Source: Candidatus Saccharimonadales bacterium
Lineage (GTDB): Bacteria > Patescibacteriota > Saccharimonadia > Saccharimonadales > UBA10212
DNA length: 64,000 nucleotides
Reading direction: 5' to 3'
Assembly (NCBI GenBank): GCA_049521895.1
Contig: JBEKOJ010000001.1
Span: 695,114-759,113 of the forward strand
Positions within the stretch are counted from its first letter, which is position 1, and the number at the start of each line of letters is the position of its first letter. Made by a program: the position numbers and the translations under genes. The notes beneath the pieces were generated by a model. It saw only the letters and a program-made list of their open reading frames with translations. It did not search any database and was not told the DNA's origin. Positions 1,302 to 44,600 of the stretch are shown here, piece after piece.

Positions 1302-1428
1302 GAGCGAATTTAGCATCTACCATTTGTCATTTAGCATTTATTTTTCATTTGTCATTTAGCATTGAGCAGCAAAGTTAAATGTTACCTGTTAAATAAATGT
1401 GAATTGTGAACTGTTAAATGTAAAATAG
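1291..1428. repeat. CATTT/AAATG word-hairpin element, copy H1
   Basis: Small GC hairpin CGCTCC-AGTA-GGAGCG over the stop codon. A long AT-rich imperfect palindrome follows, with left arm (CATTTNN)n and right arm (AAATG)n. Contains the 15-mer CTGTTAAATAAATGT at 1386-1400. Confidence 0.7.
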
Positions 1429-1432
1429 TCTT

Positions 1433-3049
1433 ATGAGATCAATCGAGATTCCGCAGCCTGAGGACCGCGACTGGAAATACCGGGCCTTCGAGATTCTACC
1501 GGCAGTGTTAACCTGGACAATCCTAAGCCTTCCCGTAGTTTTGGGCATTATCAGCGCCCCGGCGGCGGCATTCTTCGTCATTGGCTACTTAATGCTTTGG
1601 TTTGTCCGTGCTATCGGTATAGATCTGCGCTCGCTCCAGGGATGGCATAATTTGAACCAACATAAAAGACTCCCTTGGAAAAAGCTCAATAGCGATCTGG
1701 AAATCCTCGAACCCAGGACTAAAAATGCCCCTGGCTGGCATGCCCGTAATCTACGCCGGGTAGAGAATAATATCCCCCGCACCCGCATTAAACCCAGCGA
1801 GGTTTATCACGCCGTTATCATCGCTTTCTGGAACGAGTCACGCGAGATCTTAGGGCCGACGGTTAAATCGGTACTAGATAGTGACTACGACCCCAAAAAA
1901 ATCATCCTAATCTTGGCTTACGAGCAGCGCGGCGGCCCGGAAATAGAAGCTACCGCTAGAAGCTTGATTAAAGAATACGGCAAAGATTTCTACTACGCCC
2001 ATGCCGTGATGCACCCATGGCCAATGACCGGGGAGGTTATCGGGAAGGGCGGCAATATTACTTATGCCGGTCGCTGGCTGAAAACCTACTTGGAAGAACA
2101 AAAAATTGACCCATTGCACGTTTTGGTCACCACACTTGATTCGGATAACCGTCCGGATCCTCAGTATCTTGGCGCCTTGACCTACACCTATTGTTCCACC
2201 GAGGATCCCAAACACTCCTCCTACCAGCCGGTACCAATGTTCCTCAATAATATCTGGGATGCGCCGGCGCCGATGCGCGTAGTCGCCACCGGTAACTCGT
2301 TTTGGAATATCATCTTGTCAATGCGCCCACACATGTTGCGTAACTTTTCCAGCCACGCCCAGCCGATGGCCGCTCTAATCGACACCGATTTTTGGAGTGT
2401 GCGCACTATCGTGGAGGACGGCCACCAATTTTGGCGAACCTGGTTCCGCTACGACGGCAACCACCAAGTCTATCCTATATACGTGCCGATTTACCAGGAT
2501 GCGGTACTGGCTGAAACCTACCGCAAAACCATAAAAATGCAGTTTATCCAGGTCCGGCGCTGGGCATGGGGCGCCTCCGACATAGCTTACTTTATCAACC
2601 AGGGCTTTTTTAAGATTAATAACATCCCGCTACATAAAAAAATTGCCAAATTTGGCCGCCTGCTAGAAGGCCACATTAGCTGGTCTACAGCTCCGCCGAT
2701 CCTACTGCTGTCCGCTTATCCGCCGTTTTTCCTGCATCCGCAAAGTTTTGTCGGCCAAGAGCTGCCCCAGTATGCCAGCGCCCTTCAGAGGATCGCTATG
2801 GTCGGTATTTTGATCAGCCTTTTTCTATGCATGAGATCGCTGCCCCCTAAGCCAGAGCGCTATAAACGCCGCCGCACCGTTTGGATGGTCATCCAATGGA
2901 TCTATCTGCCGATTACATCTATAATTTTCAGTTCCTTCGCTGCTATATACGCGCAAACCCGGCTGGCTTTTGGCCGGTATCTGGGCTTTATCGTTACTGA
3001 AAAAGCCAGTAAGAGTAAACGCGTGGACACCACAGAGTTACTGAAGTAA
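1433..3049 (+). CDS. membrane-bound family 2 glycosyltransferase (processive, cellulose/chitin-synthase-like)
   Basis: N- and C-terminal TM segments, DSDN acidic motif, and QVRRWAWG (the Q-x-x-R-W signature of processive GT2). Confidence 0.7.
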   Translation: MRSIEIPQPEDRDWKYRAFEILPAVLTWTILSLPVVLGIISAPAAAFFVIGYLMLWFVRAIGIDLRSLQGWHNLNQHKRLPWKKLNSDLEILEPRTKNAPGWHARNLRRVENNIPRTRIKPSEVYHAVIIAFWNESREILGPTVKSVLDSDYDPKKIILILAYEQRGGPEIEATARSLIKEYGKDFYYAHAVMHPWPMTGEVIGKGGNITYAGRWLKTYLEEQKIDPLHVLVTTLDSDNRPDPQYLGALTYTYCSTEDPKHSSYQPVPMFLNNIWDAPAPMRVVATGNSFWNIILSMRPHMLRNFSSHAQPMAALIDTDFWSVRTIVEDGHQFWRTWFRYDGNHQVYPIYVPIYQDAVLAETYRKTIKMQFIQVRRWAWGASDIAYFINQGFFKINNIPLHKKIAKFGRLLEGHISWSTAPPILLLSAYPPFFLHPQSFVGQELPQYASALQRIAMVGILISLFLCMRSLPPKPERYKRRRTVWMVIQWIYLPITSIIFSSFAAIYAQTRLAFGRYLGFIVTEKASKSKRVDTTELLK

Positions 3050-3198
3050 CTCTCATTTGACATTTATCATTTGACATTTAGCATTTATTTTTCATTTGAA
3101 CATTTTTCATTGCCCCACATTTGTTAAATACTACCTGTTAAATAAATGTAAATTGTTAAATGTAAAATGATAAATCCTGCAAAGCTAGCTTTGCAGGC
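3036..3198. repeat. CATTT/AAATG word-hairpin element, copy H2
   Basis: GC hairpin GAGTTAC-TGAA-GTAACTC over the GT2 stop, an AT-rich palindrome with CTGTTAAATAAATGT at 3135-3149, then hairpin CCTGCAAAGC-TAGC-TTTGCAGG over the nrdR stop. Confidence 0.7.
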
Positions 3199-3595
3199 TA
3201 GGGTGTTCGGCCATATAACGTAAACCAGCTCGTTTATCCAAACGGCCCAAGACCTTTGATGTGAGCTTGCTGATCTGTTCTGGCGCGAACAAGGGGCTCT
3301 CCGGCAGCTTTAGCAGGTTCTTTATAACAGTGTTAGTTACTTCCCGGGCGTCCACATAGCAGTTTTTTCGGTCCTGTAGGGCTAATAGTACTTCGGTAAA
3401 CAGCAAATCGGGCAAAAAGGCCTTTGTAGAGGCCCCAGATTGGACTAAAAGGGCATTAGGCAGGTCTATAGCCTCGTGAGTGGTAAAAACCGCCTTACAG
3501 GCCAAGCATTGCCGCCGGCGCCATACCTGATTGTTACGCTTCTGCAAACGGCTATTGATGACCTTTGTCTCATGCCCACAATATACACAAATCAT
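3185..3595 (-). CDS. nrdR: transcriptional repressor NrdR
   Basis: MICVYCGHETKVINSR...CLACKAVFTT zinc ribbon plus ATP-cone. I prefer ATG 3595 over the track start 3667, whose extension lies in repeat H3. Confidence 0.85.
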   Translation of the reverse strand: MICVYCGHETKVINSRLQKRNNQVWRRRQCLACKAVFTTHEAIDLPNALLVQSGASTKAFLPDLLFTEVLLALQDRKNCYVDAREVTNTVIKNLLKLPESPLFAPEQISKLTSKVLGRLDKRAGLRYMAEHPSLQS

Positions 3596-16978: not shown

Positions 16979-17326
16979 CTACTTAATTTTGGCGGCTTTC
17001 AAAACCGCTTCAAAGGCCTTGGGTTCGTTGACGGCCAATTCTGCCATCACTTTTCTGTCTAAAGTGATCTGCGCCTTTTTCATACCATTAATAAGCACGC
17101 TATAAGTCGTTCCATGCGTGCGGGCAGCGGCATTAATGCGGGCGTTCCACATCTGTCGGAAAGTCCGCTTGCGGTTCCGGCGGTCGCGGTAAGCGAACTG
17201 CAGGGCGCGGGTTGTGGCCTGGCGGCCGCGCTTCAGGGAAGAGCGGTGGGATTTTTGCATGCCCCGCGTGGCCTTGCGGACTTTTAAATGGCGTTTATGG
17301 CTGGCCACACCCCTTTTTACCCTCAT
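16979..17326 (-). CDS. rplT: 50S ribosomal protein L20
   Basis: [16 protein letters not shown]... I prefer ATG 17326 with a GAGGAG SD over the track start 17359, which lies inside repeat H5. Confidence 0.9.
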
Positions 17327-17340
17327 CGCTGTGCTCCTCG

Positions 17341-17471
17341 GGCATTTGCCATTTGCCATTTGCCATTTGCCATTAATTTACCAAGTGGCATTTGCCGTTG
17401 ATTAAATGAAAAAAGATCAATAAATGTTAAATGTGAATTGTTAAATGTGAATTGGAATGACGTAGTCATGA
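17341..17471 (-). repeat. intercistronic word-hairpin cassette, copy H5 (rpmI-rplT spacer)
   Basis: Reverse complement is roughly four-fifths identical by eye to 27341-27472. (CATTTGC)x4 arm versus (AAATGT/GAATTG) arm. Confidence 0.7.
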
Positions 17472-17666
17472 CTAGACTCCTAGGTTCCGGCGGATGTCTT
17501 TATTGTGTTTGCCATGCAGCTGCTGCACACCGGCAAAATGCCGCTTGCGCGAAGCTGATTTCTTCTCTAAAAAGTGGCTGCCGGTGGCGCGCCTACGCAG
17601 CAATTTACCGGTCTTGGTGACGGTAATGCGCTTGCCGGTTCCTTTATGAGTCTTTAACTTTGGCAT
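17472..17666 (-). CDS. rpmI: 50S ribosomal protein L35
   Basis: MPKLKTHKGTGKRITVTKTGK... Confidence 0.9.
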   Translation of the reverse strand: MPKLKTHKGTGKRITVTKTGKLLRRRATGSHFLEKKSASRKRHFAGVQQLHGKHNKDIRRNLGV

Positions 17667-18177
17667 GGGGGCGATTCATCCTAACGACGAAACTCAGCTG
17701 CCGGCCAGCAAATTCGGGTGGTTGTTCAACGACAACGTCGTCGCCCAGATCCGCCGTAATTCGCTCGGCTAACTTATAACCCAGCTCTTTGTGGGCCAGT
17801 TCTCGTCCCCTATAGACTACCGCAATCTTCACCTTATGTCCAGCTTCCAGAAAAGCCGTGACTTTGCGCAATTTGATGGCTAAGTCATGGTCGCCGATGC
17901 GCAGGCTGGTGCGCATTTGCTTTAGGTCCAGCGGCTTAGATTTGGCGCGGCTTTTTTGCGCCTGCTTGGTGCGCTGGTAATTATATTTGCCCCAATCAAC
18001 GACTTTGGCTACCGGCGGCTTGGCATCGGGCGAGACTTCCACCAGGTCGAGTTCGGCTTCCCGGGCGGCGGCCAAGGCCTCAGAGCGGCTTAAAACGCCT
18101 AGTTGGCGGCCATCTTCACCTATAACACGCAGTTCAGGGGCCCTGATGGCCTCGTTGATCCGGGGGTCCTTAGAGAT
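17644..18177 (-). CDS. infC: translation initiation factor IF-3, non-canonical AUC start
   Basis: The conserved N-terminal region ISKDPRINEAIRAPELRVIGEDGRQLGV lies upstream of the track start. That frame is closed by TGA just before ATC 18177, and GGAG sits 7 nt upstream. Confidence 0.8.
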   Translation of the reverse strand: MSKDPRINEAIRAPELRVIGEDGRQLGVLSRSEALAAAREAELDLVEVSPDAKPPVAKVVDWGKYNYQRTKQAQKSRAKSKPLDLKQMRTSLRIGDHDLAIKLRKVTAFLEAGHKVKIAVVYRGRELAHKELGYKLAERITADLGDDVVVEQPPEFAGRQLSFVVRMNRPHAKVKDS

Positions 18178-18226
18178 TTCTCAACTCCATGCTTTTCGTG
18201 AATGAATAATATCAAAGCCGATACCT

Positions 18227-19741
18227 TTACGCAAAGACTTGCTGGCGGTATTGCAGGGCTTCAGATATGTGCTGGGGTTCTATGGTTAGCTCGTTGGCCA
18301 AATCGGCGATGGTGCGGGCGACTTTGACCGAGCGCACGTAGGCCCGCGCCGAGATATTAAGCTTGCTGGCGGCACTATCCAGCAGATCTTTAGCATCGGT
18401 AGTCAGGCCGGCTTGCTCGCGCACTTCTTTATTGGTCATGGAATTGTTGTAGCGCGCCTTGCCAAAGCGCCGGTGCTGGACAGCATAGGCTTTTTCTACC
18501 CTTGATCTGATTTCCAGCGTCTGGCTTTTGGCCGTGCGCTTTTCCAACAGTCGTTTGTGGTCAACCTCGTGGACGGGCAGATGCAGGTCTATACGGTCCA
18601 GAATTGGCCCGGAAACCTTCTTCTGGTACTTGGCAATGGCGCTAGCCGTACAGACACAGGGCTTATTAGTGCCGTAGTAGCCGCAGGGGCAGGGGTTCTG
18701 GGTGGCTACCAAGATAAAATCAGCTGGGTAAGTGGCGCTATCACGGACACGGGAAATACTGACCGTGCCATCCTCTAGCGGCTGGCGCAGGGCTTCCAGG
18801 CAGGCGTGGCTGAACTCAGGCAGCTCATCAAGGAATAACACGCCACGGTGGGCCAAGGTGGCCTCACCGGGTTTGGGCACGCTGCCGCCGCCCACCAAGG
18901 CCGTGGCGCTGGCCGTGTGGTGCGGCGTGCGGAAAGGCCTATTGGTGATGATGTCGCAGTGGCCGCCGTTGCCCAGAGAGTGCAGATGGGTTACTTCCAG
19001 TACTTCTGAGTGGTCCAAAGCTGGCAAAATGCCGCACATGGCTCTTGCCAGCATGGTTTTACCGGTGCCTGGCGGGCCGTGCAGTAGGATATTGTGATGG
19101 CCGGCCGCGGCAATCTCCAGCGCCCGTTTGGCAATCGGCTGGCCGGCGATCTCGGCAAACTCAATGGCATCGATATCTACCGGGTCGACTTTGATCTTGC
19201 CGCGGCCGGTTTTGAGACTTTTTAGCGGCAGGGTTTCGCTTAAATCAAGATAAACGTCCCGCAGGGTTGTCGCGGCTTTAACGGTGATCTCTGGTATAAG
19301 CCTGGCTTGGTCCAAGTTGGCCCGCGGTATGTAAAAATGGCCGAAACCCAGGTTCTTGGCAGCCAAAATTCGGCCGATTAAGCCACGGACAGGCCCAAGC
19401 TCGCCCTCCAAGCTTAGCTCACCCAAGAATATATAATCGCTTAAACTATCGGTTTTGATCTGTTGGGAGCGGGCCATAATAGCCACCGCCATAGCTAAAT
19501 CAAGGCTGGTAGAATCCTTGGGGATGTCAGCCGGCGACAGGTTAATAGTAACCCGTTTTTTGGGGAACTGGATCGTGGAGTTGGCAAAACTGGCGCGCAG
19601 GCGCTCCTTGGCCTCGTCTACGGCCTTGGAGGCATCGCCGATTATCAAAACCGAGGGCAGGCCGTTGGTGATATGGCATTCCACGTCTACCACCACGCCG
19701 CCGCCCATGTAATCCACGATGCTCTTAACTGGCTTTTTCAT
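18227..19741 (-). CDS. comM: Mg-chelatase-like ATPase YifB/ComM
   Basis: N-terminal Lon-like domain, Walker A GPPGTGKT, and C-terminal ChlI-type motifs. Confidence 0.85.
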   Translation of the reverse strand: MKKPVKSIVDYMGGGVVVDVECHITNGLPSVLIIGDASKAVDEAKERLRASFANSTIQFPKKRVTINLSPADIPKDSTSLDLAMAVAIMARSQQIKTDSLSDYIFLGELSLEGELGPVRGLIGRILAAKNLGFGHFYIPRANLDQARLIPEITVKAATTLRDVYLDLSETLPLKSLKTGRGKIKVDPVDIDAIEFAEIAGQPIAKRALEIAAAGHHNILLHGPPGTGKTMLARAMCGILPALDHSEVLEVTHLHSLGNGGHCDIITNRPFRTPHHTASATALVGGGSVPKPGEATLAHRGVLFLDELPEFSHACLEALRQPLEDGTVSISRVRDSATYPADFILVATQNPCPCGYYGTNKPCVCTASAIAKYQKKVSGPILDRIDLHLPVHEVDHKRLLEKRTAKSQTLEIRSRVEKAYAVQHRRFGKARYNNSMTNKEVREQAGLTTDAKDLLDSAASKLNISARAYVRSVKVARTIADLANELTIEPQHISEALQYRQQVFA

Positions 19742-19860
19742 GAGATTTAGCTGAATTATCGCACCTCAAGCGCAAAAGATTAATTGCTAGAGCTTAAAAA
19801 ACTTCAAAAAGCCTCCCGCACCATGATCTTTTTCGGGCATTAGCGAAGCCTGTAGCTAAC

Positions 19861-20145
19861 GGGCCTGGGCATAAGAAGCCAACCTGAGTAGATGTCGTAA
19901 AGAAGGAGCGCCCTTGGGTGCTAAAGCATGTCCGACGAAGTGGATATGCTGGGAGCATATTCGCGAGGAGTTCTTTAGCAAGCTTGTTTTTGATCGGCAG
20001 CTACATCAAGTTGGCAACGCGCCCAGCAGCTTTGCTACTTTGGGTGGCCAAAGTAGACATACGTTTAGTTCTTTGGAAAAGAACACTCAAAATCTCGGGC
20101 AGGCTAATAGCAAAACGTCCGGACTAATGCCGGACGTTTTGCGAG
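19861..20145 (+). ncRNA. structured-RNA-like repeat, copy B, ending in a bidirectional terminator
   Basis: Same conserved core as 15761-16016 with compensatory hairpin changes. Hairpin AAAACGTCCGG-ACTAATG-CCGGACGTTTT at 20112-20140. Confidence 0.4.
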
Positions 20146-20168
20146 TTTTGGTTGGGTTTTGGAGTTTG

Positions 20169-20239
20169 CCCAGCAGTGAGCTTTCGCGTGGCTTTGCCAA
20201 TATCCGCTTTGCGGATAGTCGCGAAAGTCTACTACTGAG
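20169..20239. repeat. CCCAGCAGT...ACTACTGAG palindromic element, copy P2
   Basis: Arms CCCAGCAGTGAGCTTTCGCG / CGCGAAAGTCTACTACTGAG. The arm sequences match copy P1 in the inverted orientation. Confidence 0.5.
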
Positions 20240-20433
20240 TTTGTTTGGCGAACTTTTTGTTTATAAGGTTTTGGATGGAACAACGGCTTGCGAGAAGCCG
20301 TTGTTACAGATCAATTTTTGTTTTGAGCACTTTTTTTATTCAAGTGCCATCCTCATCTTATAAACTACTGATTTTGATGTCAACAAGATTTTTATGCTTT
20401 TTTTGACAAACCTGTGCATAACTTTTTGCTAAC

Positions 20434-21125
20434 ATGCCAGCAAAATCTACGCGAAAAAATGTTTGCTACACTCTAAGCATGAAAAACCTGCCGTTTTTCG
20501 CCAACACGCCGGACAATACTCGCTGCGTCCAGGCAGCTTTTAGAATCATACTCAAATATTTTATGCCGGAGCGCAATTTTAGCTACGCGCAGCTGGACCA
20601 AATGAGCCAGAAAATGCCCGGCAAGGACACTTGGTGGCCGCCAATGCTCATAAAACTGCAAAAAATGGGTTTTTCGGTCAAAAGCATCGAAGCTTTTGAT
20701 TATAGAAGGTTCTACGAGGAGGGCGAAACCTATGTAAGGGGTATTTATCCTGAAGCAACGGCGGATTATCACCTAAACCAAACCAATCTAAAGGAGATAA
20801 AACCCCTTATACCCGAGTTTCTTAGTAAAATCGCTACAGCAACACGCCCGGGGCAACATTAAAGGACATTGATAATTTACTGGCTGATGGCTGGTTGGTG
20901 GGCGTGGCCTTAAACTCGCGGGCCTTAAATGACAAGCCGGGCTATGCCGGACACGTGGTGGTAGTTTTTGGCGCGGACAAGAACAATTTTTGGTTGCATG
21001 ACCCAGGCCTGCCGCCCATGCCAAGCCGTAAAGTTAGCCGTCAGAAATTACTTGAAGCATGGCAATGGGCTGGCGGGCAAAATACTAACCTCGCAGCTCT
21101 AAAAGCGAGCAAAAACAGAACATAA
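20434..21125 (+). pseudogene. frameshifted papain-like/C39_2-like cysteine peptidase
   Basis: The candidate catalytic Cys (NTRCVQAAF) is in ORF 20434..20862. The His/Asp part (GHVVVVFG...HDPG) is in ORF 20895..21125. The second frame is open back to 20829, so the frames must switch between 20829 and 20862, where a CCCGGGG run lies. Confidence 0.5.
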
Positions 21126-21429
21126 AAAATACAACTTTCAACTTAATACAACGTAAATTTTACAATTAAAAGCTGTGGATAAACCATATCTTACTGCTTG
21201 TTATTGTAAAAAATATACCTAATTATCGTTGACGTTTTAACTATTTTTTGCTAGGATGGTTTTTGTAAGTTAAAAACAAAAATAACTTATATCTAGCGGT
21301 TAGTGGAGACCGTTTTAGCTATCGCTCTTCAATATGAAGAGCGGTCAGTCAATGGCTTATGTGCGGTAAGCGCTACTTAAGTAATTTAATAGTTGAGCGC
21401 ATTTACCGCCTAAGCCTCCTCGTTCTATA

Positions 21430-21783
21430 ATGCTTGGTGTGAAACTCAACCACCAACGTCCAAGACTACCAGCAATTACCGCAGCTGGTAGTTTTTTATG
21501 TTTGCTGCTCATCGTGCTGTTGACCAGCCCCGTCAAGGATATCGCCTGGGCCATGGCGTTTTTTGTGAGCCTGTTGGTGTTTTTACTGAGCACAGGCTAC
21601 GCAGTGGTGTACCTACAAGCTGGCCAGATGCGCCGCGTTTACCGCTATCGAATTATCATCGCCAGCCTTTTTATAGTTATAGTACTAATGTTTCGTAGTG
21701 CCCAATCATTAAGTTGGATAGATGGTCTGGTGCTGTTGATCATAACCACTGGGCTGCTCTTTTACAGTGGCCGGCGTGCCTGA
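21430..21783 (+). CDS. hypothetical membrane protein
   Basis: Track ORF with 3-4 hydrophobic helices. Confidence 0.4.
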   Translation: MLGVKLNHQRPRLPAITAAGSFLCLLLIVLLTSPVKDIAWAMAFFVSLLVFLLSTGYAVVYLQAGQMRRVYRYRIIIASLFIVIVLMFRSAQSLSWIDGLVLLIITTGLLFYSGRRA

Positions 21784-21920
21784 GCACGGCCGAGCCATAG
21801 CGTAGGACTGATATAGAGCCTTATGCATTATAATAATGCGTATGGATCCCGTTAGAAGTAAGTATTTTATCAAAGATAAAATCTGCCAATTCTCTGGCAG
21901 AGAATTGGACTTCTAACGGG

Positions 21921-22346
21921 ATGAACCCTAGTAGCGGGGAAATAAAACCCCAGTTTGAGACGCCGCAAGGTGATGAGGGGCTGGAACGCCAGCATGATAG
22001 GGCTATGGAGCAAACTGGTGGCGAGGAAACTGCGGTCGGCAAGCAGTCACCCAAAAACGATTCCACCGCGCTGGCTTTGCCAGCCGATATCCCCGATGCT
22101 AATCCGGTAGCTATTCCGGCTGATCAAACCCAAGCCGATAAGAGCAGCCAAACTGCGGGGCCAAAAGAAGTAGCCCACGATTCACACCGTATAGAAAAAC
22201 AGTGGGTAGAACGCGCCAAAAAAGTTATCGCCCAGACTAAAGATGACCCACACACCCAGAAACATAACATGAGCTTGGTCAAAGCTGATTATATCCATAA
22301 GCGCTTTAATAAAACCATCCCCACAGATGATACGGCGGCGGCATGA
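21921..22346 (+). CDS. hypothetical acidic protein, translationally coupled to the downstream ATPase
   Basis: Track ORF. Its stop overlaps the next start (ATGA at 22343-22346). Confidence 0.4.
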   Translation: MNPSSGEIKPQFETPQGDEGLERQHDRAMEQTGGEETAVGKQSPKNDSTALALPADIPDANPVAIPADQTQADKSSQTAGPKEVAHDSHRIEKQWVERAKKVIAQTKDDPHTQKHNMSLVKADYIHKRFNKTIPTDDTAAA

Positions 22347-25243
22347 CAATCTTAGCTATTTTGATAAGCTTTCTGGTCTTGGTGGCCGCCGGTTGCAGCT
22401 TTGCCTATTTTTATATCCGTAGCATTTTTCGTGAACAGAAAAATTACGAACGTGGACTAAAAATGGTACCGGTACTCATTCATTTACCGCCGCCGAGTGA
22501 TGATGCCGACACCAAGGGCCGCGATGCCCGTGATGTGGTGGATGAGAATATCTCCCGCGCACAGGTGTTATACGGTATTTTAGCCAGCACCTTTCAAAAG
22601 GGTTTGCGGCATAAGTTTTATGGCCAGCGCCACATTGCCCTGGAAATCGTCGCTAATCACGGCGCAGTTCATTTTTATAGCGCTGTACCGGTACCACTAC
22701 TGAGCGTAGTCGAGCAGGCTATAGTCGGCGCCTACCCTACAGCCCGCCTGGAGGAAGTGCCGGAGCATAATATTTTTAGCAGCGTCGGACGGATAACCGG
22801 TACCGTAGGTGGCGAACTCGTACTTAAAGAGAACTTCGCCTATCCAATTGCTACCTACCAAGACATTAAACGTGACACTATGCAGTCGCTGCTAAACGCT
22901 TTGTCGGGCTTAACTACTGAGGATGGGGCTGGTGTCCAGATCTTGCTTAGGCCAGCGGATGGGTCCTGGCGCAAAACTGCCAACACCGAGGCCAGTAAAA
23001 AACGCACCGGTAAATCCACTCCACAAGGTTTTGAGAGTGCTTTCTGGTGGTTAGGGCAGCTGTTTACAGCCCTTACTAAGCCGCCAGACTCCAAGCAGGG
23101 CGAGAAAGAAGAAGGCGCGCCAAAAGATGTTTCTTCGTTAGACCAATCCATTGCCCAGGCCATAGAAGAAAAGACCAAGCAGGCGGGCTACGAGGTGCTG
23201 ATCCGCGTTATTGCATCCTCCAATGTCATGCAGCGGGCCGAGACGATTAAGAATAATATCGTGGCTAGCTTTGCCCTGTATGACGCGCCGGGCCGTAACG
23301 GCTTTAAATTTGTGCCAGCCCGCGATATGGAAACTTTCGTGACGGCCTATATTTTGCGTTTTTTTCCGGCTGAGAGATCCAAGAACATCTTGAGTGCTAA
23401 CGAGATCGCCACCATGTTCCACTTCCCGGACCAGCAGAATATACCCACCAGCCAGCTGGAGCGCCAAGCTTCCAAGCAGGTCGACGGCCCGCGCAACGTA
23501 CCCGAACACGGCCTGATGCTGGGCTATAACATGTTCCGCGGCGCCAAGAAAGCCATCCGCTTGGACCTTAACGACCGGCGCCGCCATATGTACGTGGTTG
23601 GCCAAACCGGTACCGGAAAGTCGATGTTTTTGGAAAACTTGGCGCTGCAAGACATGTTAGAGGGACGGGGGTTTGCTTTTGTCGATCCGCACGGTGATAC
23701 GGCTGAAAAGCTGCTGGCTATGGTGCCCAAAGAGCGTACGGAAGACGTAATTTATTTCTGCCCGGCCGACATGGATTACCCCCTGGGACTTAATATGTTT
23801 GAGTATCACAACCCCGAGCAGAAAGACTTTTTGATCCAGGAAGCCATCAATATGCTCTATAAGCTTTACGACCCGGGCCACACCGGTATCATTGGCCCGC
23901 GCTACGAACATTTGTTCCGCAACGCTGCCCTAACCATCATGGCCGACCCGAACGGCGGCAGCTTTGTGGACATACCCAAACTTTTCCGCGACCCAGTCTT
24001 TGTGGAGCAAAAACTTAAGTACGTCACAGATCAAAACGTTATTGAATTCTGGCGCAAAGAAATGCCCCAAAGCCAGCGGTCTAACGAGTTCGGCGAGGTT
24101 GTCAGCTGGTTTATTTCTAAATTTGGCGCTTTTCTTAGCAACGAGATGATGCGCAATATCATCGGCCAGAGCAAGAGCAGCTTTGACCTGCGCGAGGTCA
24201 TGGATACCAATAAAATCCTGCTGGTTAACCTCAGCCGCGGACGGACAGGCGACCTAAATTCCAAACTGTTGGGCATGATTTTTGTGATGAAATTCCAGGC
24301 CGCGGCCATGAGCCGGGCGGACATTCCCGAAGACTTCCGCCAGGACTTTTGCCTGTATGTCGATGAGTTCCAAAACTTCAGCACCGACTCTTTTGCCGAT
24401 ATCTTGTCTGAAGCCAGAAAATACCGCCTGAACGTAGTCGTAGCTAATCAGTTTACCACCCAGTTGACAGATGAGGTACGCGACGCTGTTTTTGGTAACG
24501 TTGGGACGGTGGTAGCTTTCCGCGTGGGAACTAATGACGCCGAATTTCTGGCTAAGCAATACGCGCCGATCTTTGATATCGACGATTTACAGTTTTTGCC
24601 CAACTACAACACTGCTGTACGCATGCTGATTGGCGGCGTGCCGGTACAGTCGTTTTCTATGGCGACTTTGCCACAGTTGGGCAACCCCAATAAGCAACTG
24701 GCTGATGCTCTAAAGCAACTCTCAGCTGCCAAATATGGCCGGCCGAAACAGGCGGTAGAAGCTGAGATTTTCAAGCGCATGGAAACCCAGCCACGCTTGG
24801 GCGGCCCCAGGCCTGGCCTGCCCGCTGGGGCGGGCGCCAGCCCGTTTGACAACTTGGGCTTGCCGCCCGCTGCGGGTGCTTTATCTGGCCCAAGTATGGC
24901 TCCAAGATCATCCACACCCTCCAGTCAGACAGGTTCGTCGTTTCTCGACGAGTGGTTGGCTAAACGTAAAGGTATGGCACCAGGCCAGCCAATGGCCCGC
25001 GCCAGTTCTGCTCCCGGCGCTTCGCCCCCGGCCTATGCCACTACGCCGTCTGCAACCTCTAGCAATGTAGCTAGTCCAACAGTTGCTAAATCGCAGCCGG
25101 CACCGGCTTCAACAGAATTAGCTAAGCCTGAACCGGGCGAGTTCAAAATTAGGCGTGATGATAACAATGCGGCAGGTGGTATGACCGATGAGGGGCAGAC
25201 AATCCATATAGATAAAGACGGCAACCTCTCCTATGGACAGTAG
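22343..25243 (+). CDS. VirD4/TraD/TraG-like (type IV secretion coupling protein family) membrane ATPase with a Pro/Ala/Ser-rich tail
   Basis: N-terminal TM, Walker A VVGQTGTGKS, Walker B CLYVDEFQNF, and a distal RKYRLNVVVANQ. The last ~190 aa are low-complexity P/A/S. Confidence 0.65.
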   Translation: MTILAILISFLVLVAAGCSFAYFYIRSIFREQKNYERGLKMVPVLIHLPPPSDDADTKGRDARDVVDENISRAQVLYGILASTFQKGLRHKFYGQRHIALEIVANHGAVHFYSAVPVPLLSVVEQAIVGAYPTARLEEVPEHNIFSSVGRITGTVGGELVLKENFAYPIATYQDIKRDTMQSLLNALSGLTTEDGAGVQILLRPADGSWRKTANTEASKKRTGKSTPQGFESAFWWLGQLFTALTKPPDSKQGEKEEGAPKDVSSLDQSIAQAIEEKTKQAGYEVLIRVIASSNVMQRAETIKNNIVASFALYDAPGRNGFKFVPARDMETFVTAYILRFFPAERSKNILSANEIATMFHFPDQQNIPTSQLERQASKQVDGPRNVPEHGLMLGYNMFRGAKKAIRLDLNDRRRHMYVVGQTGTGKSMFLENLALQDMLEGRGFAFVDPHGDTAEKLLAMVPKERTEDVIYFCPADMDYPLGLNMFEYHNPEQKDFLIQEAINMLYKLYDPGHTGIIGPRYEHLFRNAALTIMADPNGGSFVDIPKLFRDPVFVEQKLKYVTDQNVIEFWRKEMPQSQRSNEFGEVVSWFISKFGAFLSNEMMRNIIGQSKSSFDLREVMDTNKILLVNLSRGRTGDLNSKLLGMIFVMKFQAAAMSRADIPEDFRQDFCLYVDEFQNFSTDSFADILSEARKYRLNVVVANQFTTQLTDEVRDAVFGNVGTVVAFRVGTNDAEFLAKQYAPIFDIDDLQFLPNYNTAVRMLIGGVPVQSFSMATLPQLGNPNKQLADALKQLSAAKYGRPKQAVEAEIFKRMETQPRLGGPRPGLPAGAGASPFDNLGLPPAAGALSGPSMAPRSSTPSSQTGSSFLDEWLAKRKGMAPGQPMARASSAPGASPPAYATTPSATSSNVASPTVAKSQPAPASTELAKPEPGEFKIRRDDNNAAGGMTDEGQTIHIDKDGNLSYGQ

Positions 25244-25366
25244 CTCTTGGCAAAAGTACACATAAAAACATAGTTTACAATCTGTAATCTGGCTTGCGCG
25301 GTAGGCCGCAATCGGCTACAATATATGTGAGATGTTTAGACAAAAAACAGAGAGGGAATCTTTGCT

Positions 25367-27340
25367 GTGAGTGCCGAAAATAACCCAAAAGGCCATAGTT
25401 ATGATGCCAGCCAAATCCAGGTACTGGAAGGTCTGGATCCAGTGCGCAAGCGTCCGGGTATGTACATTGGCAGCACCGGCACCGAAGGCCTGCACCATCT
25501 TGTAAAGGAGTTGGCCGATAACGGCATCGATGAAGTAATAGCTGGTTTCGCCACCGAACTCCATATTACTCTGCACCAAGACGGCGGCGTGACCGTAACT
25601 GACAACGGCCGTGGTATCCCGGTAGAAATCCATCCTAAAACCCACAAGAACACCTTAGAGACAGTGCTAACAACCTTGCACGCCGGCGGTAAGTTTGGTT
25701 CTGGCGGCTATAAAGTAAGCTCCGGCCTGCATGGCGTGGGTTCTAGCGTAGTTAATGCGCTGTCGATTAAGCTTATTGCCACTGTCGCCCGCGACGGTTT
25801 CGAGTGGACGCAGGAGTACGCCAAAGGTGTGCCGACAACCAAGCTTATCAAGGGTAAGCCAACGGATCGAACTGGCACCACCATCACTTTTTATCCCGAC
25901 AGCAGCGTCTTCAATACAACCACGGATTTTGACTACGACTGGGTAGTAGACTACTTGCGCCACCAGGCTTATCTCACTAAGGGGGTAAAAGCTTCGGTAT
26001 CAGATGAACGCAGCGGCCAGGCCTATGCTTTTCATTTCGAAGGCGGCATCGAAAGCTATGTCCGACATCTCAATGCCGGCAAAGAGACGCTGGACGAAGA
26101 GATTTTCTACGTCGAGAAAGAGATAGAAGAAGCCATAGTGGAAATTTCTCTGCAGTATAACGACGGTTTTAATGAAACCGTAATGGCTTTTGCCAACAAC
26201 GTCTATAACGTCGAAGGCGGTATGCACCTGACCGGTTTCCGCACTGCGCTCACAAGAGTTATTAACGATTACGCCCGCAAAAGCGGCTTACTAAAAGATA
26301 AAGAAGAGAATCTGACCGGCGAAGACTGCCGCGAGGGCTTGACCGCCGTTATTTTGATAAAAATCCCCGACCCGCAGTTTGAGGGCCAAACTAAGAACAA
26401 GCTGGGTAATCCAGAGGTGCGCGGCTATGTAGAGCAGGTGATGAACGAGTGGTTTTCTTACTATTTAGAAGAGCACCCGGCGATCGGCCGCAAGATAGCC
26501 GGCAAGGTACTGCTGGCCGCCCGCGCCCGTAAAGCCGCCCGCGCCGCGCGCGATAACATCATTCGTAAAGGTGCTCTAGAAGGCGCCAGTTTGCCCGGTA
26601 AGCTGGCCGACTGCGCCACCCGCGACCGCAGCCAGGCTGAGCTGTTCATAGTAGAGGGCCTTTCCGCTGGCGGCTCTGCTAAAGACGGCCGCAACAGCTT
26701 TTACCAGGCTATTTTGCCGCTGCGCGGCAAAGTGTTGAACGTTGAACGGGCGCGTCTAGACAAAATGCTGGCCAATCAGGAAATTTTAAATCTTATTAAA
26801 GCTATGGGCGTAGGCATTGAAGATCAGTTCGATATAACAGGCCTGCGCTACGAGCGAATCATTATCATGACCGATGCTGACGTAGATGGTTCTCATATTC
26901 GGACTCTATTAATGACTTTCTTCTTCCGGCACATGCGTCAAGTCCTAGAAGGTGGGCATGTTTATGCCGCACAGCCGCCGTTGTTCGGAATTGTCAGTGG
27001 AAAAAAAGAGGACTATGTCTACAGTGAAGAAGAGCGTGATACCGCTATTGATAAAATCATCCAAGAACGCAGGGATAAAGGTATAAAAATAGATAAAAAC
27101 GATGAGCGTATCAAGCAAGCAGGGGTGTCGATTAAACGGTATAAAGGCTTGGGGGAGATGAATGCTGAACAACTGTGGGAAACTACCATGAATCCGACCA
27201 ACCGAGTTCTAGCCCAGGTAAAGATTGAAGATGCCGAAAAGGCTGACGCTATTTTCTCCAAACTGATGGGAACAGAGGTAGAAATGCGCAAAAACTTCAT
27301 CCAAAGCCGCGCTAAATTCGTGAAGGACCTGGATATTTAG
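25367..27340 (+). CDS. gyrB: DNA gyrase subunit B
   Basis: YDASQIQVLEGLDPVRKRPGMYIG, EGLSAGGSAK, PLRGKVLNVE. GTG start with an AGAGGGA SD. Confidence 0.95.
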   Translation: MSAENNPKGHSYDASQIQVLEGLDPVRKRPGMYIGSTGTEGLHHLVKELADNGIDEVIAGFATELHITLHQDGGVTVTDNGRGIPVEIHPKTHKNTLETVLTTLHAGGKFGSGGYKVSSGLHGVGSSVVNALSIKLIATVARDGFEWTQEYAKGVPTTKLIKGKPTDRTGTTITFYPDSSVFNTTTDFDYDWVVDYLRHQAYLTKGVKASVSDERSGQAYAFHFEGGIESYVRHLNAGKETLDEEIFYVEKEIEEAIVEISLQYNDGFNETVMAFANNVYNVEGGMHLTGFRTALTRVINDYARKSGLLKDKEENLTGEDCREGLTAVILIKIPDPQFEGQTKNKLGNPEVRGYVEQVMNEWFSYYLEEHPAIGRKIAGKVLLAARARKAARAARDNIIRKGALEGASLPGKLADCATRDRSQAELFIVEGLSAGGSAKDGRNSFYQAILPLRGKVLNVERARLDKMLANQEILNLIKAMGVGIEDQFDITGLRYERIIIMTDADVDGSHIRTLLMTFFFRHMRQVLEGGHVYAAQPPLFGIVSGKKEDYVYSEEERDTAIDKIIQERRDKGIKIDKNDERIKQAGVSIKRYKGLGEMNAEQLWETTMNPTNRVLAQVKIEDAEKADAIFSKLMGTEVEMRKNFIQSRAKFVKDLDI

Positions 27341-27472
27341 TCATGACTACGTCATTCCAATTATCATTTAACACTTTACATTTAACATTTATTGATCATT
27401 TTTCATTTAACAGATTCGAAAAATGGCAAATGCCAAATTAATGGCCAATGATAAATGGCCAATGATAAATGC
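27341..27472 (+). repeat. intercistronic word-hairpin cassette, copy H6 (gyrB-gyrA spacer)
   Basis: Starts TCATGACTACGTCATTCCAATT directly after the gyrB TAG. Ends AAATGCC directly before the gyrA SD. Confidence 0.7.
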
Positions 27473-27490
27473 CTCCGGAGGAGGCGTTTG

Positions 27491-30049
27491 ATGGACGATA
27501 GAACTAAAGGCTTGCTGCCAAGTATAGAAAAACACTCCAAAACTGTCTTGGACCGTTCGGTCGAGAACGAGATGGAGACCAGCTACCTTCAATACTCCAT
27601 GAGTGTAATCGTGGCGCGAGCCCTTCCAGACGTACGTGACGGCTTAAAACCAGTCCACCGTCGTATTTTGTACGTTATGGATAAAAACGGGCTTGGAGCG
27701 GGCTCTAAACATACTAAAAGCGCCCAAATTGTGGGCGATGTGATGGGGAAATACCATCCGCACGGCGATACAGCCATTTATGACGCTATGGTACGGCTGG
27801 CACAGCCGTTTTCTACCAGATATCCGCTGGTGGACGGGCAGGGTAACTTTGGCAGTATGGACGGTGACCCGCCGGCTGCCTACCGCTATACCGAGGCCCG
27901 TATGACCAAGGCCTCTGAGGCCTTGCTGGAAGACATCGATAAAGAAACCGTACCTTTTAGGGATAACTTCGACGGCTCCCAACAGGAACCAGAGGTGCTA
28001 CCGGCCAAAATTCCCAATCTGTTGCTAAACGGCCAGGTGGGCATAGCCGTGGGCATGGCCACTAATATTCCGCCGCATAACCTGTCAGAGCTGGTAGACG
28101 CCACTATTGAACAGATAGACAATCCCGAAGCCACCTTGGACGATCTAATGAAGCACGTTAAGGGGCCGGACTTTCCGACGGGTGCGGTAGTCTACGGCAA
28201 AGAGTCCATCCGCAGCGCTTTTGCCACCGGCCGCGGCGGTGTGGTAGTGCGCGGCGTAGCCGACATTGAGGAGTCCAGCAAAGGCCGCCACCAGATTATC
28301 ATCAGCGAAATCCCTTATGCCGTTAACAAAGCTGGCTTGGTAGAGAAAATCGCCGACTTGGTTCGCGAAAAGAAGATTAGCGGTATATCTGATATTCGCG
28401 ATGAGAGCTCGCGCGGCAGCGTGCGAATCGTTATGGATTTGAAAAAAGATGCCTACCCAAAAAAGTTGCTCAACCAGCTGTACAAGTTAACTCCATTGCA
28501 AACGGCCTTTCACTACAACATGCTGGCGCTGGTGGACGGCATCCAACCCCGGGTTTTGGGTCTGCAGGACATTATCAATGAGCACATTAAACACCGGCAG
28601 GTGGTGGTGCGCCGACGCACCGAGTTTGAACTCAAAAAAGCCCAGGAACGCGCCCATGTGCTGGAAGGTCTGAAAATTGCCCTCGACCATATCGACGAAG
28701 TCATCAAGACAATCCGCGCTAGCCAGACCCAAGAAGAGGCTGAAGCCAATCTAATTACCGCCTTTAAGCTTAGCCAAATACAAGCTCAAGCTATCTTATC
28801 GATGCAGTTGCGCCGCTTGACCGGCCTGCAGCGCCAAGAAGTTGAAGATGAGCTGGCCAATCTGATATCACTTATCTCCAAATTGCAAACTGTCTTGGCC
28901 GATGAGAAGAAGATCCTGAAAATCATTAAAGATGAACTGCTGGACGTGAAAAAACAGTTTGGCGATGAGCGCCGAACAAAGATTGTCGCCGCCGAACTGG
29001 GCAAACTTAGCGATGAAGATCTAGTTCCTGATGAGCAAGTTGTTGTTACACTTACATCGGCAAACTATATAAAGCGCACTTCAATCGCTGATTATAAACG
29101 GCAGGGCCGCGGTGGCAAGGGCCGAAGAGGAATGGCTACCCGCGACGAAGATTATATAGAGCACGTTGTTAATGCATCAACACATGATTACCTACTTTTC
29201 TTCACAAACAAAGGCCGGGTCTTCCGCATTAAAACTTACGAAGTGCCGGCGGTTGGTTTAAATGCTAAGGGCGTAGCTATTGTAAACTTGCTGCAGCTAC
29301 AGCCAGAAGAGGCTGTTACATCTGTTATAAATGTAACTAAAGGCAGCGGTGAGTCGGGCTATCTATTGATGTGTACGATCCATGGTGTAGTTAAGAAAAC
29401 ACCATTTGAGCAATACCAGAACGTTCGTGCTACCGGCCTAATTGCTATCAGGTTGGATGACAAAGACGAGCTCAAATGGATCCGCCATACCTCTGGTAAG
29501 GATGAAGTTATTATTTCTACCAGCCAGGGGCAGGCTATTCGCTTTTCTGAAAAGGACGCCCGGCCAATGGGCCGGGCCAGCCGTGGCGTTCGTGGTATTC
29601 GCTTACGCGCCGGCGACCAGGTAATCGGTATGGATATGGTGCAAGAAAAAGCTTCGCTATTTGTCATTAGCGAATTCGGCTATGGCAAACGCACTAAGGT
29701 GGAGCAATTTACTCCTCATAAAAGAGGTGGCGTAGGTATCCGCTCGGCAGTAGTCAACAAAAAGACCGGCCCGCTGATAGGTGTTAAATCGCTGGAGGGC
29801 TTAGATCAGGAAGTGATAATTATTTCTGCTGAAGGTCAAACCATCCGCTTAGGGCTCAGAAACATCCCAAGCCTAGGGCGGGCGACCCAAGGCGTGCGCA
29901 TTATGCGCCTTAATGGCGGCGACCAGGTGGTATCGCTAGCACTGGTGGAAAAGGTTGAAGAAGTCGAAGAAGAACCCTCAGGGGTCCCAGCTGATAATAA
30001 GCCGGCCAAAGAGCCAAAAACCAAGATCTCCACGAAGCCCAAAAAGTAA
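27491..30049 (+). CDS. gyrA: DNA gyrase subunit A
   Basis: [28 protein letters not shown] and YHPHGD. I prefer ATG 27491 (GGAGGAGG SD 7 nt upstream) over track start 27455, which lies inside the repeat. Confidence 0.95.
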
Positions 30050-32655: not shown

Positions 32656-34241
<1,586 letters not shown>

Positions 34242-34258
34242 AGGGAGAATATTCAACC

Positions 34259-34386
34259 CGTGCTAACACACGGATTTAGCATTAAGCATTTTCCATTTAG
34301 CATTAATTTTTCATTTGACATTTGCCAACTGTTAAATAAATGTGAATTGTGAACTGTAAAGTAATAAATCTCGTGCAGAGCACGAG
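34259..34386 (+). repeat. CATTT/AAATG word-hairpin element in the 16S trailer, copy H8
   Basis: CCGTG-CTAACA-CACGG, an AT palindrome with CTGTTAAATAAATGT at 34329-34343, then CTCGTGC-AGA-GCACGAG. Confidence 0.7.
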
Positions 34387-34536
34387 GTATGGTTGATCCC
34401 CGCAGCCGGAGTTGAACTAACCGGTTGCACTCTAAAAGGGGAAAGTTCATTTTTGACGTTTGATCTGCACTACCCAGTTTTCAAAAAAGCCTGCTTTAAA
34501 AAGCGGGCTTTTTCTGCTAGAATACCCCTGTTGTGA

Positions 34537-34609
34537 GGGGTTATAGCTCAGCTGGTAAGAATACTCCGCAAAATAAAATTTTGCGGGGACCCCGAGTTGA
34601 GCGCGCCAC
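34537..34609 (+). pseudogene. degenerate tRNA-like remnant
   Basis: GGGGTTATAGCTCAGCTGGTAAGA is a tRNA 5' half. The middle is replaced by hairpin CCGCAAAAT-AAA-ATTTTGCGG, and the tail GAGTTGAGCGCGCCAC resembles the tRNA-Ile 3' end. No valid cloverleaf. Confidence 0.4.
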
Positions 34610-34634
34610 TGCTACTTAACAAAATGGTGTACAT

Positions 34635-40838: not shown

Positions 40839-41194
40839 CATATAGGTCTGGTAGCGGTAAGCTGGGGAACTGAAACATCTTAGTACCCAGAGGAAAGGAA
40901 AGTAAACAACGAATCCCGTAGTAGTGGCGAGCGAACCGGGACCAGCCCAAACCTTTTAAGTTTCCATCTGTTAATTCAGGTGGATAAATTGGTAGATGAA
41001 TACTTAATAGGGGTTGTGACAAACAATTAACCAGTACGGAGCCCTGGAGCAATCCAGGACTGCGTACTGCTGCAGGTTCTACCGATGGCCTGCGTAAGGT
41101 TACAAATTTCCGGGGCGAGCAGAACAGTCTGGAAAGGCTGGCCAAAGACAGTGAAAGCCTGGTACGCAAAGTGTCGGAAACCTTATCAATTGTT

Positions 41195-41353
41195 TAGCGG
41201 TGCGCAGCACCGCATTTACCATTGACCATTTTTCATTTACCATTGATTTTTCATTGACCATTTACCATTGCAAGCTGCAATTGTTAAATGTTACCTGTTA
41301 AATAAATGTAAATTGTTAAATGTAAATTGATAATTGCGATGCTACGCATCGCC
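41195..41353 (+). repeat. CATT/AATG word-hairpin insertion in 23S, copy H10
   Basis: GCGGTGC-GCA-GCACCGC, an AT palindrome with CTGTTAAATAAATGT at 41295-41309, then GCGATGC-TAC-GCATCGC. Confidence 0.7.
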
Positions 41354-41529
41354 TGTCGAGTAGGTCGGGACACGTGAAACCCTGACTGAAACCAGAGGGA
41401 CCACCCTCTAAGGCTAAATATGTTTTGCGATCGATAGTGTACAAGTACCGTGAGGGAAAGGTTAAAAGAACCGCGGATAGCGGAGTGAAATAGAGCCTGA
41501 AATTATGTGCGTACAAGGAGTCGGAGCGA

Positions 41530-44078: not shown

Positions 44079-44202
44079 ACAGTTTGGCATTGTGCCGAGC
44101 GTGTATATGTGTAGCATAGGTGGGAGACTTTGAAGCTGACGCGCTAGCGTCGGTGGAGTCACCGGTGAAATACCACCCTTATATACGTTTTGTACTTACA
44201 TG

Positions 44203-44379
44203 GCCCTTGAATTGCAAGCAATTCAGGGCATTTACCATTGACCATTTTGCATTACCATTAATTTTTCATTTGTCATTTTTCATTGCAGCTGCAATTGTTA
44301 AATGGTATCTGTTAAATAAATGTTAATTGTGAATTGTAAAATGTTAAATGACCCTGGAAGATTACTTGTAATTCCAGGG
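44203..44379 (+). repeat. CATT/AATG word-hairpin insertion in 23S domain V region, copy H13
   Basis: GCCCTGAATTGC..GCAATTCAGGGC-type clamp, an AT palindrome with CTGTTAAATAAATGT at 44309-44323, then CCCTGGAA...TTCCAGGG. Confidence 0.7.
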
Positions 44380-44600
44380 TCGTGGACAGTGTCTGATGGG
44401 TAGTTTAACTGGGGCGGTTGCCTCCTAAAGAGTAGCGGAGGCGTTCAAAGGTTGGCTAGATACGGATGGAAATCGTATTGGTAGTGTATACGCACAAGCC
44501 AGCTTGACTGCGAGGCATACAAGCCGAGCAGGCACGAAAGTGGGAGTAAATGACCCGCTGATCGCACCTTTTGGTGCATGAGTGTGGTATTGACAGCGAA

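Follow-up and report, generated by a model that had tools for sequence, protein, structure and literature searches.

The stretch of 64,000 nucleotides analysed here (the window), from contig JBEKOJ010000001.1 of a Candidatus Saccharimonadales bacterium, carries two operon spacers, one between rpmI and rplT and the other between gyrB and gyrA, that resemble each other over their whole length. With a probability of roughly 0.62, both spacers are copies of a dispersed, non-coding, quasi-palindromic repeat of Candidatus Saccharimonadales, of the type represented by MITEs (miniature inverted-repeat transposable elements) and rRNA intervening sequences (IVSs), selfish-like in character and uncoupling the cistrons that it separates. 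This reading is built on the membership of the two spacers in a repeat family, the architecture of the family, empty sites in relatives, orientation statistics and compensatory changes in the hairpins. In the following, L with a three-digit number labels a sampled lineage or locus used in the comparisons; L20 and L35 are ribosomal proteins.

The flanking genes code for L35, L20, GyrB and GyrA, as judged from the Pfam annotation of identical proteins. Reading the sequence of both spacers confirmed all coordinates of the original prediction. In mRNA sense both open with the TAG of the upstream gene (rpmI, 17474-17472, minus strand; gyrB, 27338-27340, plus strand), continue with TCATGACTACGTCATTCCAATT and finish in AAATGCC, followed by GAGGAG (17339-17334) or GGAGGAGG and the ATG of rplT (17326-17324) or gyrA (27491-27493). 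The unit indeed spans from the upstream stop codon to the downstream Shine-Dalgarno (SD) sequence. The rpmI-rplT spacer reads ...GGAGTC TAG TCATGACTACGTCATTCCAATT...GGCAAATGCC CGAGGAGCACAGCG ATG, and the gyrB-gyrA spacer ...GATATT TAG TCATGACTACGTCATTCCAATT...GATAAATGCC TCCGGAGGAGGCGTTTG ATG. The similarity, previously put at about four-fifths, amounts to 79% when the spacers are globally aligned between the stop and start codons (identity in 124 of 157 columns; 83% of the ungapped columns), with a longest identical run of 25 nt and a score of 177 vs -29 +/- 11 for shuffled sequences. On the chromosome the pair was recovered by a repeat finder as inverted repeats (I1, 84 nt at 88%; I2, 60 nt at 77%) that lie 9.8 kb apart, and the two copies share their polarity relative to transcription, as had been noticed. 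Promoter and terminator scans of the mRNA strand of both spacers found nothing above shuffled expectation, and the modules have no open reading frame (ORF) signal above chance. Gene callers place ORFs of 42-51 aa within modules (L001-L006 3198-3344; L196 4978-5106; L194 2349-2504) and stretch L20 (126 vs 115 aa) and GyrA (864 vs 852 aa) upstream into them; these calls and extended starts are likely annotation artefacts arising from the AUG-rich arms.

The pair was originally thought of as a device of two loci. This view does not hold, as the two spacers are only two of seven full family copies in the window, which are also found in the 23S rRNA gene, in an rRNA spacer and between unrelated genes (Table 1). 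The seven stretches align end to end, and a profile made from them (nhmmer) recovers exactly these seven, with E = 1e-31 to 1e-41. In addition, a degenerate core of 23 nt, AATAAATGTNAAWTGTNAANTGT, has seven matches in the window vs 0.00 expected, and the repeat finder lists related window copies as families D12 and D13. The sites of the family are 23S rRNA helices, rRNA spacers and junctions of tightly packed genes; the module is confined to transcribed, non-coding niches. Stop codons of flanking genes often lie within the terminal hairpins of the modules, which means that the neighbouring genes take their final codons and their stop codon from the modules. In the window, the TAG of a 118-aa ORF (1299-1301) is in the loop of the hairpin CGCTCC-AGTA-GGAGCG (1293-1304) and that of an NrdR-like gene in the loop of CCTGCAAAGC-TA-GCTTTGCAGG (3174-3195); further cases are L028 (~3545-3560) and L197 (~5320-5345).

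All copies have a common layout of approximately 130-165 bp, in which a (CATTTNN)n arm and an (NNAAATG)n arm lie in this order between a small variable hairpin and another small hairpin. One arm is the inverted repeat of the other (GCATTTA...TAAATGC), and the outermost hairpins differ among the copies. Tandem Repeats Finder (TRF) detected arrays of period 7 or 14 in both spacers; those of period 7 comprise 4-4.6 copies with up to 100% matches. The arms are approximately 65-70% Watson-Crick complementary, and the central hairpin is therefore imperfect. Copies in reverse orientation start after the stop codon with TC, a 5-bp stem with a 3-nt loop and TCCAATT, and they end in a hairpin with the consensus GCCTCC-NNN-GGAGGC, which contains the SD sequence 4-5 nt before the start codon. 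Forward copies end in ...AAATGTAAAATGTNTTT ATG without an SD sequence, the start codon having been checked by N-terminal conservation.

The terminal hairpins vary in sequence from copy to copy, and their pairing is almost always kept. In eight copies of the SD hairpin from five assemblies 95.8% of the positions are paired, and four of the six core pairs have changed on both sides. The post-stop hairpin occurs as four different stems, all of them 100% paired, with four of five pairs changed on both sides. Two strains diverged by approximately 0.5% have three differences in the 151-nt rpmI-rplT spacer, two of which, A to G and T to C, are the two sides of one stem pair; the post-stop hairpin of the second strain type, GTGAC-TAC-GTCAC, thus carries a compensatory change. 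All these changes lead from one Watson-Crick pair to another, so that an RNA hairpin and a DNA palindrome would look the same. The layout described for the pair is also kept by the positional counterparts of another species, L193 for rpmI-rplT and L197 for gyrB-gyrA, with the TAG, TC, 5-bp hairpin, TCCAATT, arms and SD hairpin all in place and compensatory changes in the stems.

Table 1. Copies of the repeat family in the 64-kb window and elements of the two operon spacers.
Feature	Position	Strand	Remarks
Family copy	1300..1459	+	Forward; without SD; between co-directional 118-aa ORF and 538-aa glycosyltransferase-like ORF (ATG 1433)
Family copy between convergent genes	3043..3200	+	Both flanking stop codons within its terminal hairpins
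Family copy, whole rpmI-rplT spacer	17327..17471	-	nhmmer E = 7.6e-39; reverse relative to family model in mRNA sense
Shine-Dalgarno GAGGAG at module end	17334..17339	-	7 nt before rplT ATG
Perfect heptamer array CATTTGC x 4.6 (plus-strand reading)	17343..17374		TRF, 100%; mRNA reads GCAAATG
Post-stop hairpin ATGAC-TAC-GTCAT	17457..17469	-	2 nt past rpmI TAG
Family copy, whole gyrB-gyrA spacer	27341..27490	+	nhmmer E = 1.1e-38; reverse relative to family model
Post-stop hairpin ATGAC-TAC-GTCAT	27343..27355	+	In gyrB-gyrA spacer
Hairpin burying SD, AAAUGCCUCC-GGA-GGAGGCGUUU	27467..27489	+	Core GCCTCC/GGAGGC 27471-27485; gyrA ATG 27491
Family copy in 16S-23S spacer	34260..34408	+	20 nt past 16S rRNA 3' end (34239)
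Family copy in 23S gene, with both flanking GC hairpins	41186..41366	+	E. coli position ~361; site empty in L130
Family copy in 23S gene, one long stem	44200..44385	+	E. coli position ~2207, helix 79 region

Relatives with empty sites give a view of the two operons without the module. The rpmI and rplT genes abut, with 0-3 nt between them, in five of the seven sampled lineages, and modules are present only in the species of the window and in L193. In L189/190 (L20 90% identical) the junction reads GGAGTTTAAATG, GGAGTT TAA ATG; it is GGAGTTTAGCAGATG, TAG CAG ATG in L195 (89%) and TAA TTT ATG in L191/192 (85%; GGAGTTTAATTTATG in L191), and L204 and L205 (79-81%) have gaps of 3 nt. At all of these junctions the SD sequence (AGGAG) lies within the last codons of rpmI. 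The gyrB-gyrA site is empty in L195, one of the two nearest lineages (ATATAAGATG, GATATA TAA G ATG; GyrB 87% and GyrA 88.5% identical), and it holds modules that are built alike from different heptamers, CAATGAA and TTCAATG, in L196 (GyrB 86%, GyrA 89%) and L197 (81%, 84%). On account of the empty sites the inserted state would be the derived one at both loci, a polarity taken from five empty lineages out of seven, without a resolved tree. No target-site duplication was found in the filled and empty pairs of the rpmI/rplT, gyrB/gyrA and 23S position 361 sites. An origin of the terminal hairpins from host flanks copied as palindromes during insertion was considered and rejected, since the SD sequence and spacer 3' of the hairpin are missing at the empty sites. 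One relative with an empty rpmI-rplT site has a gene for a PF05635 '23S rRNA-intervening sequence protein' (L189 1399-1710, L190 1354-1710), located between a comM-like gene and infC and outside any rRNA gene.

Copies within a genome are more alike than copies at the same site in different species, which counts in favour of the MITE/IVS-type reading. The rpl and gyr copies of the window are 78% identical, an mRNA-spacer copy and a 23S copy of the window 75%, and the two copies in the L193/L197 genome 69%, and the identity of same-site copies across species is 50-64%. Across species, 23S position 2207 and the gyrB-gyrA spacer have kept the flanking hairpins, and the heptamer arms have been replaced. 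This pattern points to arms that are copied within the genome or undergo gene conversion.

The L20 and GyrB homologues that are 80-90% identical to those of the window bear Candidatus Saccharimonadales or Saccharibacteria names. The window is also part of the JGI contig Ga0427942_000004 (769,618 bp). A scan with the core pattern over one genome per GTDB species gave 76 loci, with full-length family matches only in five other species of Saccharibacteria. In cyanobacteria, Bacteroidota and further groups, the core pattern hit plain one-armed (ACATTTA)n arrays or different heptamers. A pattern scan of metagenomes was not used as a census, being made up mostly of unrelated heptamer arrays among the matches listed. 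Long one-armed (ACATTTA)n arrays were seen in loci of cyanobacteria, Cytophagales, Bacteroidetes and Methylovulum (L023, L017, L026, L056, L060, L071), which shows that the heptamer unit recurs far outside Saccharibacteria, and at a Microcoleus locus there are two arms of heptamers, (GGTAATT)n and (CAACTGT)n, that complement each other in part.

The rRNA genes of relatives are heavily populated by the family. The 23S rRNA gene of the window (40559-44878) measures 4320 nt vs the 2925 positions of the model, and that of L176 reaches 5129 nt, with seven copies inside and another one in the 23S-5S spacer; copies are also found in L130 and L063. The occupancy of the same positions differs from species to species. 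At E. coli position 361 there are 164 inserted nucleotides in the window, 10 in L130 and 165 in L176, at position 651 there are 2, 0 and 164, and at positions 2402-2407 there are 10, 8 and 165, respectively. At position 361 L130 is without the arms and also without both flanking hairpins. It has been reported that 64 of 66 insertions in Saccharibacteria rRNA genes are short (<=250 bp), lack introns or homing endonucleases and are unclassified (Tsurumaki et al. 2024, PMC11270868). The family described here accounts for at least some of them.

In the predictions, the 23S copy at 44200-44385 folds into one long helix with a minimum free energy (MFE) of -63.4 kcal/mol (z = -6.46), and the 23S stretch 41197-41366 has z = -4.1. 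The gyrB-gyrA spacer also folds (MFE -37.8, z = -3.75), and in it a 10-bp stem present in both the MFE and the centroid structure buries the gyrA SD sequence one nucleotide from the AUG. The rpmI-rplT spacer does not, and in mRNA sense it has an MFE of -21.1 kcal/mol and z = +1.25, with 181 of 200 shuffles folding at least as well and only the 5-bp post-stop hairpin retained in the centroid structure. All 15 rRNA-operon copies have the same orientation relative to rRNA transcription (three in the window, eight in L176 and two each in L130 and L063), some of them being orthologous sites and so not fully independent. Intercistronic copies are found nine times in forward and eight times in reverse orientation. 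The shared polarity of the two spacers, which had been taken to argue for a role at the transcript level, is real for the pair, but with these mixed orientations the argument cannot be extended to the family. Over 32 copies, the strand that is forward in the model tends to fold better, including six of the eight mRNA copies in reverse orientation. G.U-compatible mismatches exceed those of A.C type by a small margin (53.5 vs 38.5 in rRNA copies, 30 vs 17.5 in reverse copies). An adaptation of the arms to fold as they are transcribed was considered and dropped, as the bias in strand-specific MFE and in the G.U/A.C counts was weak and did not decide the matter. Copies in reverse orientation are not adapted to their mRNA sense, and the long stem in the two spacer copies thus has no sign of tuning for it.

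These data bear directly on the view that the module is a selected cassette for RNA processing and insulation, in which RNase III would cut the central stem in rRNA and mRNA alike, as in 23S intervening sequences, leaving the small hairpins to protect the upstream fragment at its 3' end and the downstream fragment at its 5' end as caps, and splitting the mRNA into independently stable and translated messages. We regard this as rather unlikely, though a selected processing role for the two spacers is possible. Copies in rRNA and mRNA share one architecture, with a long stem between two hairpins, the small hairpins change in a compensatory manner, modules persist for long at some sites (flanking proteins ~68% identical), and both the uniform orientation and the strong fold of rRNA copies and the structured gyrB-gyrA spacer agree with it. 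Moreover, short rRNA insertions of the candidate phyla radiation (CPR) have been viewed as probable RNase III intervening sequences (PMC11270868), and in Neisseria RNase III cleaves the Correia elements that mRNAs carry (PMC2649163, PMC10969869). Against this stand the lack of structure in the rpmI-rplT spacer, the better folding of the antisense strand in most reverse-orientation copies, arms of limited complementarity with a weak G.U asymmetry, the occurrence of intercistronic copies in both orientations and the several related lineages, including L195 as one of the two nearest, that do without the module at both sites. A still bolder form, a self-contained RNase III excision cassette of Saccharibacteria with two capping hairpins and stop and SD ends that spreads through the genome, fragments 23S rRNA and splits operon mRNAs, is somewhat less probable again; were it true, the rpmI-rplT and gyrB-gyrA modules would be functional operon splitters and not passengers.

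Mobility is dispensed with altogether if the heptamer repeats expanded in place by slippage around pre-existing small hairpins and owe their likeness to convergent slippage or gene conversion. The perfect period-7 arrays would fit, as would the different heptamers between conserved hairpins at the same site of different species (23S position 2207 and gyrB-gyrA) and the one-armed (ACATTTA)n arrays of many phyla. However, the empty sites are also without the flanking hairpins, and the whole unit is therefore gained or lost together. Unlinked copies share non-repetitive parts, the 23-nt core being present in seven of seven, and TCATGACTACGTCATTCCAATT is identical at two loci 10 kb apart and recurs in part in another species (L028), all of which makes slippage improbable. 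Least probable, in our opinion, is a role at the level of DNA, be it protein binding by heptad arrays or inversion of the 10-kb segment between the paired copies. In inc18 plasmids, heptads of 7 bp are the binding sites of the omega repressor, and the CATTT/AAATG core has a strict 7-bp periodicity in both arms. A DNA-binding array has no need, however, of the strict transcriptional orientation seen in rRNA genes, and species differ in the heptamer sequence that they carry at a given site. As to inversion of the 17.5-27.3 kb segment, which had been suggested from the inverted arrangement of the copies 9.8 kb apart, the longest stretch of identity, 25 nt, is short as a substrate of homologous recombination, and no evidence of inversion was found: the gene order is the same in all six distinct rpmI places listed (22 contigs read), in all six gyrB places listed (19 contigs read) and in three related species.

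The interpretation as a MITE/IVS-type repeat has points against it as well. No target-site duplication, conserved terminal sequence or transposase was found, so we infer mobility from the distribution of the copies only. The terminal hairpins vary and yet belong to the inserted DNA, which is unusual for an element recognised by a transposase. Modules persist at the same site between species in which the flanking proteins are only ~68% identical, and compensatory changes maintain their hairpins. Site persistence and the upkeep of hairpins point away from pure junk, and towards either some constraint on the structure of RNA or DNA or gene conversion that is still going on. Finally, the direction of gain or loss depends on the five empty lineages of seven and not on a resolved tree.

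Among known systems, intervening sequences of 23S rRNA are close in several respects. Two copies in the window and many of those in relatives lie in 23S helices as insertions of ~160 nt, form extended stem-loops, occur sporadically between species and have no ORFs or intron features. For the copies at 41186-41366 and 44200-44385 both insertion in a 23S helix with absence from some relatives and an extended stem-loop were observed, the former property being one that does not apply to the rpmI-rplT and gyrB-gyrA copies in mRNA spacers. Unlike these intervening sequences, the family is also found between protein-coding cistrons, its arms have heptamer periodicity, and its window copies lie at E. 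coli positions ~361 and ~2207, whereas the classic helix 25/helix 45 sites hold a second family here. Correia repeat enclosed elements (CREE) of Neisseria and enterobacterial repetitive intergenic consensus (ERIC) sequences are likewise small, non-coding, multi-copy inverted repeats that are co-transcribed with their neighbours, are polymorphic between strains and can alter the processing or stability of mRNA (PMC2649163, PMC10969869, PMC2229807). Correia elements, however, are bounded by defined terminal inverted repeats of 26 bp and show duplication of TA, in contrast to the variable terminal hairpins of the module and its lack of target duplication; the module further differs in its heptamer-array arms and the SD sequence at one end, and there is no sequence similarity. 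Rickettsia palindromic elements (RPEs) are selfish palindromes of a reduced genome that are found at tolerated positions of essential genes, including those of tmRNA and RNase P RNA (PMC2229807). They insert in frame within protein-coding sequence, whereas the modules lie between genes and in rRNA. Repetitive extragenic palindromic (REP) sequences, with their composite forms (BIMEs, bacterial interspersed mosaic elements) and doublets (REPINs), are extragenic palindromes between operon cistrons that were classically proposed to stabilise upstream mRNA (PMC3116915, PMC3733652). REPs are 20-40 bp long, carry GTAG or CGTC as a conserved tag and are linked to a gene for a REP-associated tyrosine transposase (RAYT), and the units of the window are 4-5 times longer. 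A conserved tag of GTAG type was not found in them; the GTAG in ATGACGTAGTCAT stems from its position and is missing from the equivalent hairpins GCAATGAAATTGC and GTGATGGAATCAC.

The module does not belong to any of the classical mobile classes compared. As with MITEs, it is a short, non-coding, multi-copy unit that some relatives have at a given site and others do not, but it lacks the target-site duplication; it is no REP because there is no tag. With derivatives of IS200/IS605 it shares a subterminal hairpin at either end and the lack of clear terminal inverted repeats and of a target duplication, but a conserved hairpin with a flanking tetra- or pentanucleotide target was not found, the hairpins varying freely and having no common flank. 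None of ten window ORFs scanned matched a transposase family. The modules have no Rfam 15 match at gathering score, positions 17000-27700 have none at E <= 1, and BLAST of the gyrB-gyrA spacer against plasmid and phage collections gave no match. In the literature searched no paper links MITE-type repeats with rRNA intervening sequences, and none describes such repeats in Patescibacteria. By analogy, the module may work like Correia and ERIC elements and 23S intervening sequences, and it recalls RPEs as well as the heptamers treated next.

Short tandemly repeated repetitive (STRR) sequences of cyanobacteria are tandem heptanucleotide arrays, often with two complementary arms, which occur in intergenic regions and within genes of structured RNAs (helix P12 of RNase P RNA) and vary between strains. 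The arrays of the window have the same tandem period of 7 nt. They differ in phylum and heptamers, and no full-length match to the family was found outside Saccharibacteria. We know of no reported role of STRR sequences as an intercistronic unit from stop codon to SD sequence. STRR and other small dispersed repeats are treated in Mazel 1990, Vioque 1997 and Elhai 2008.

Other features of the window are recorded here. The second family has the same plan, with a GC hairpin, a (GTATNNN)n arm, an (NNNATAC)n arm and a GC hairpin, and its copies are located at 3596-3670, upstream of an NrdR-like ORF, and within the 23S rRNA gene at 40723-40838 and 41534-41641 (E. coli ~161 and ~546, the latter being the helix 25 IVS site). 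The 23S gene also has a 696-nt insertion (43235-43930, E. coli ~1931) with a LAGLIDADG_1 ORF at 43316-43804, which looks like a group I intron and has counterparts of similar size in both relatives; insertions of this intron type are rare in Saccharibacteria, 2 of 66 (PMC11270868). The 16S and 23S genes are 6.3 kb apart (34240-40558), with tRNA-Ile, tRNA-Ala and protein genes on both strands between them, namely a GT1 glycosyltransferase (37866-39110, minus strand), a GH130 gene (39186-40142, plus strand) and three ORFs without Pfam match. Past the 5S rRNA gene, at ~46215-46245, a hairpin resembling an intrinsic terminator, GGCCTCC-GAAA-GGAGGTCC, is followed by a T-run and has a CCTCC/GGAGG stem as in the SD hairpins of the modules. 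From 46834 to 64000 a single ORF, which continues past the window and has no fewer than 5722 aa, is composed of diverged repeats of ~1.4-3 kb (families D1-D18); its product is presumably a giant surface protein.

If both spacers are copies of the MITE/IVS-type repeat, the module would have inserted between abutting cistrons in which the ancestral stop codon was 0-3 nt from the next start and the SD sequence lay inside the upstream gene. The insert would be co-transcribed and push the cistrons approximately 145-150 nt apart, a distance that would remove coupling by termination and reinitiation. The data support the loss of the ancestral adjacency of stop and start. Tight coupling would then be replaced by independent initiation, with translation of the downstream gene relying on the SD sequence at the module end. 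Judging from the predicted structures, initiation at rplT would be unhindered, its SD sequence being free, and that at gyrA would be gated by the hairpin in which the SD sequence is locked. Such a module would be tolerated where its ends give the neighbours an in-frame stop on one side and an SD sequence on the other, and any effect on expression would probably be mostly a tolerated by-product rather than a selected function.

The repeat family is genome-wide and also invades essential operons, and it gives an identity to some of the unclassified rRNA insertions. The modules also explain spurious short ORFs and mis-called starts, such as the 48-aa ORF calls in the spacer and the L20 of 126 instead of 115 aa. 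For translational coupling, nature provides pairs with and without the module, as rpmI-rplT and gyrB-gyrA abut in several related lineages and are 145-150 nt apart here, and Saccharibacteria are now genetically tractable (PMC10633639). With seven copies of this family and three of the second one per 64 kb, a streamlined CPR genome of approximately 1 Mb appears to tolerate a high density of selfish hairpin repeats.

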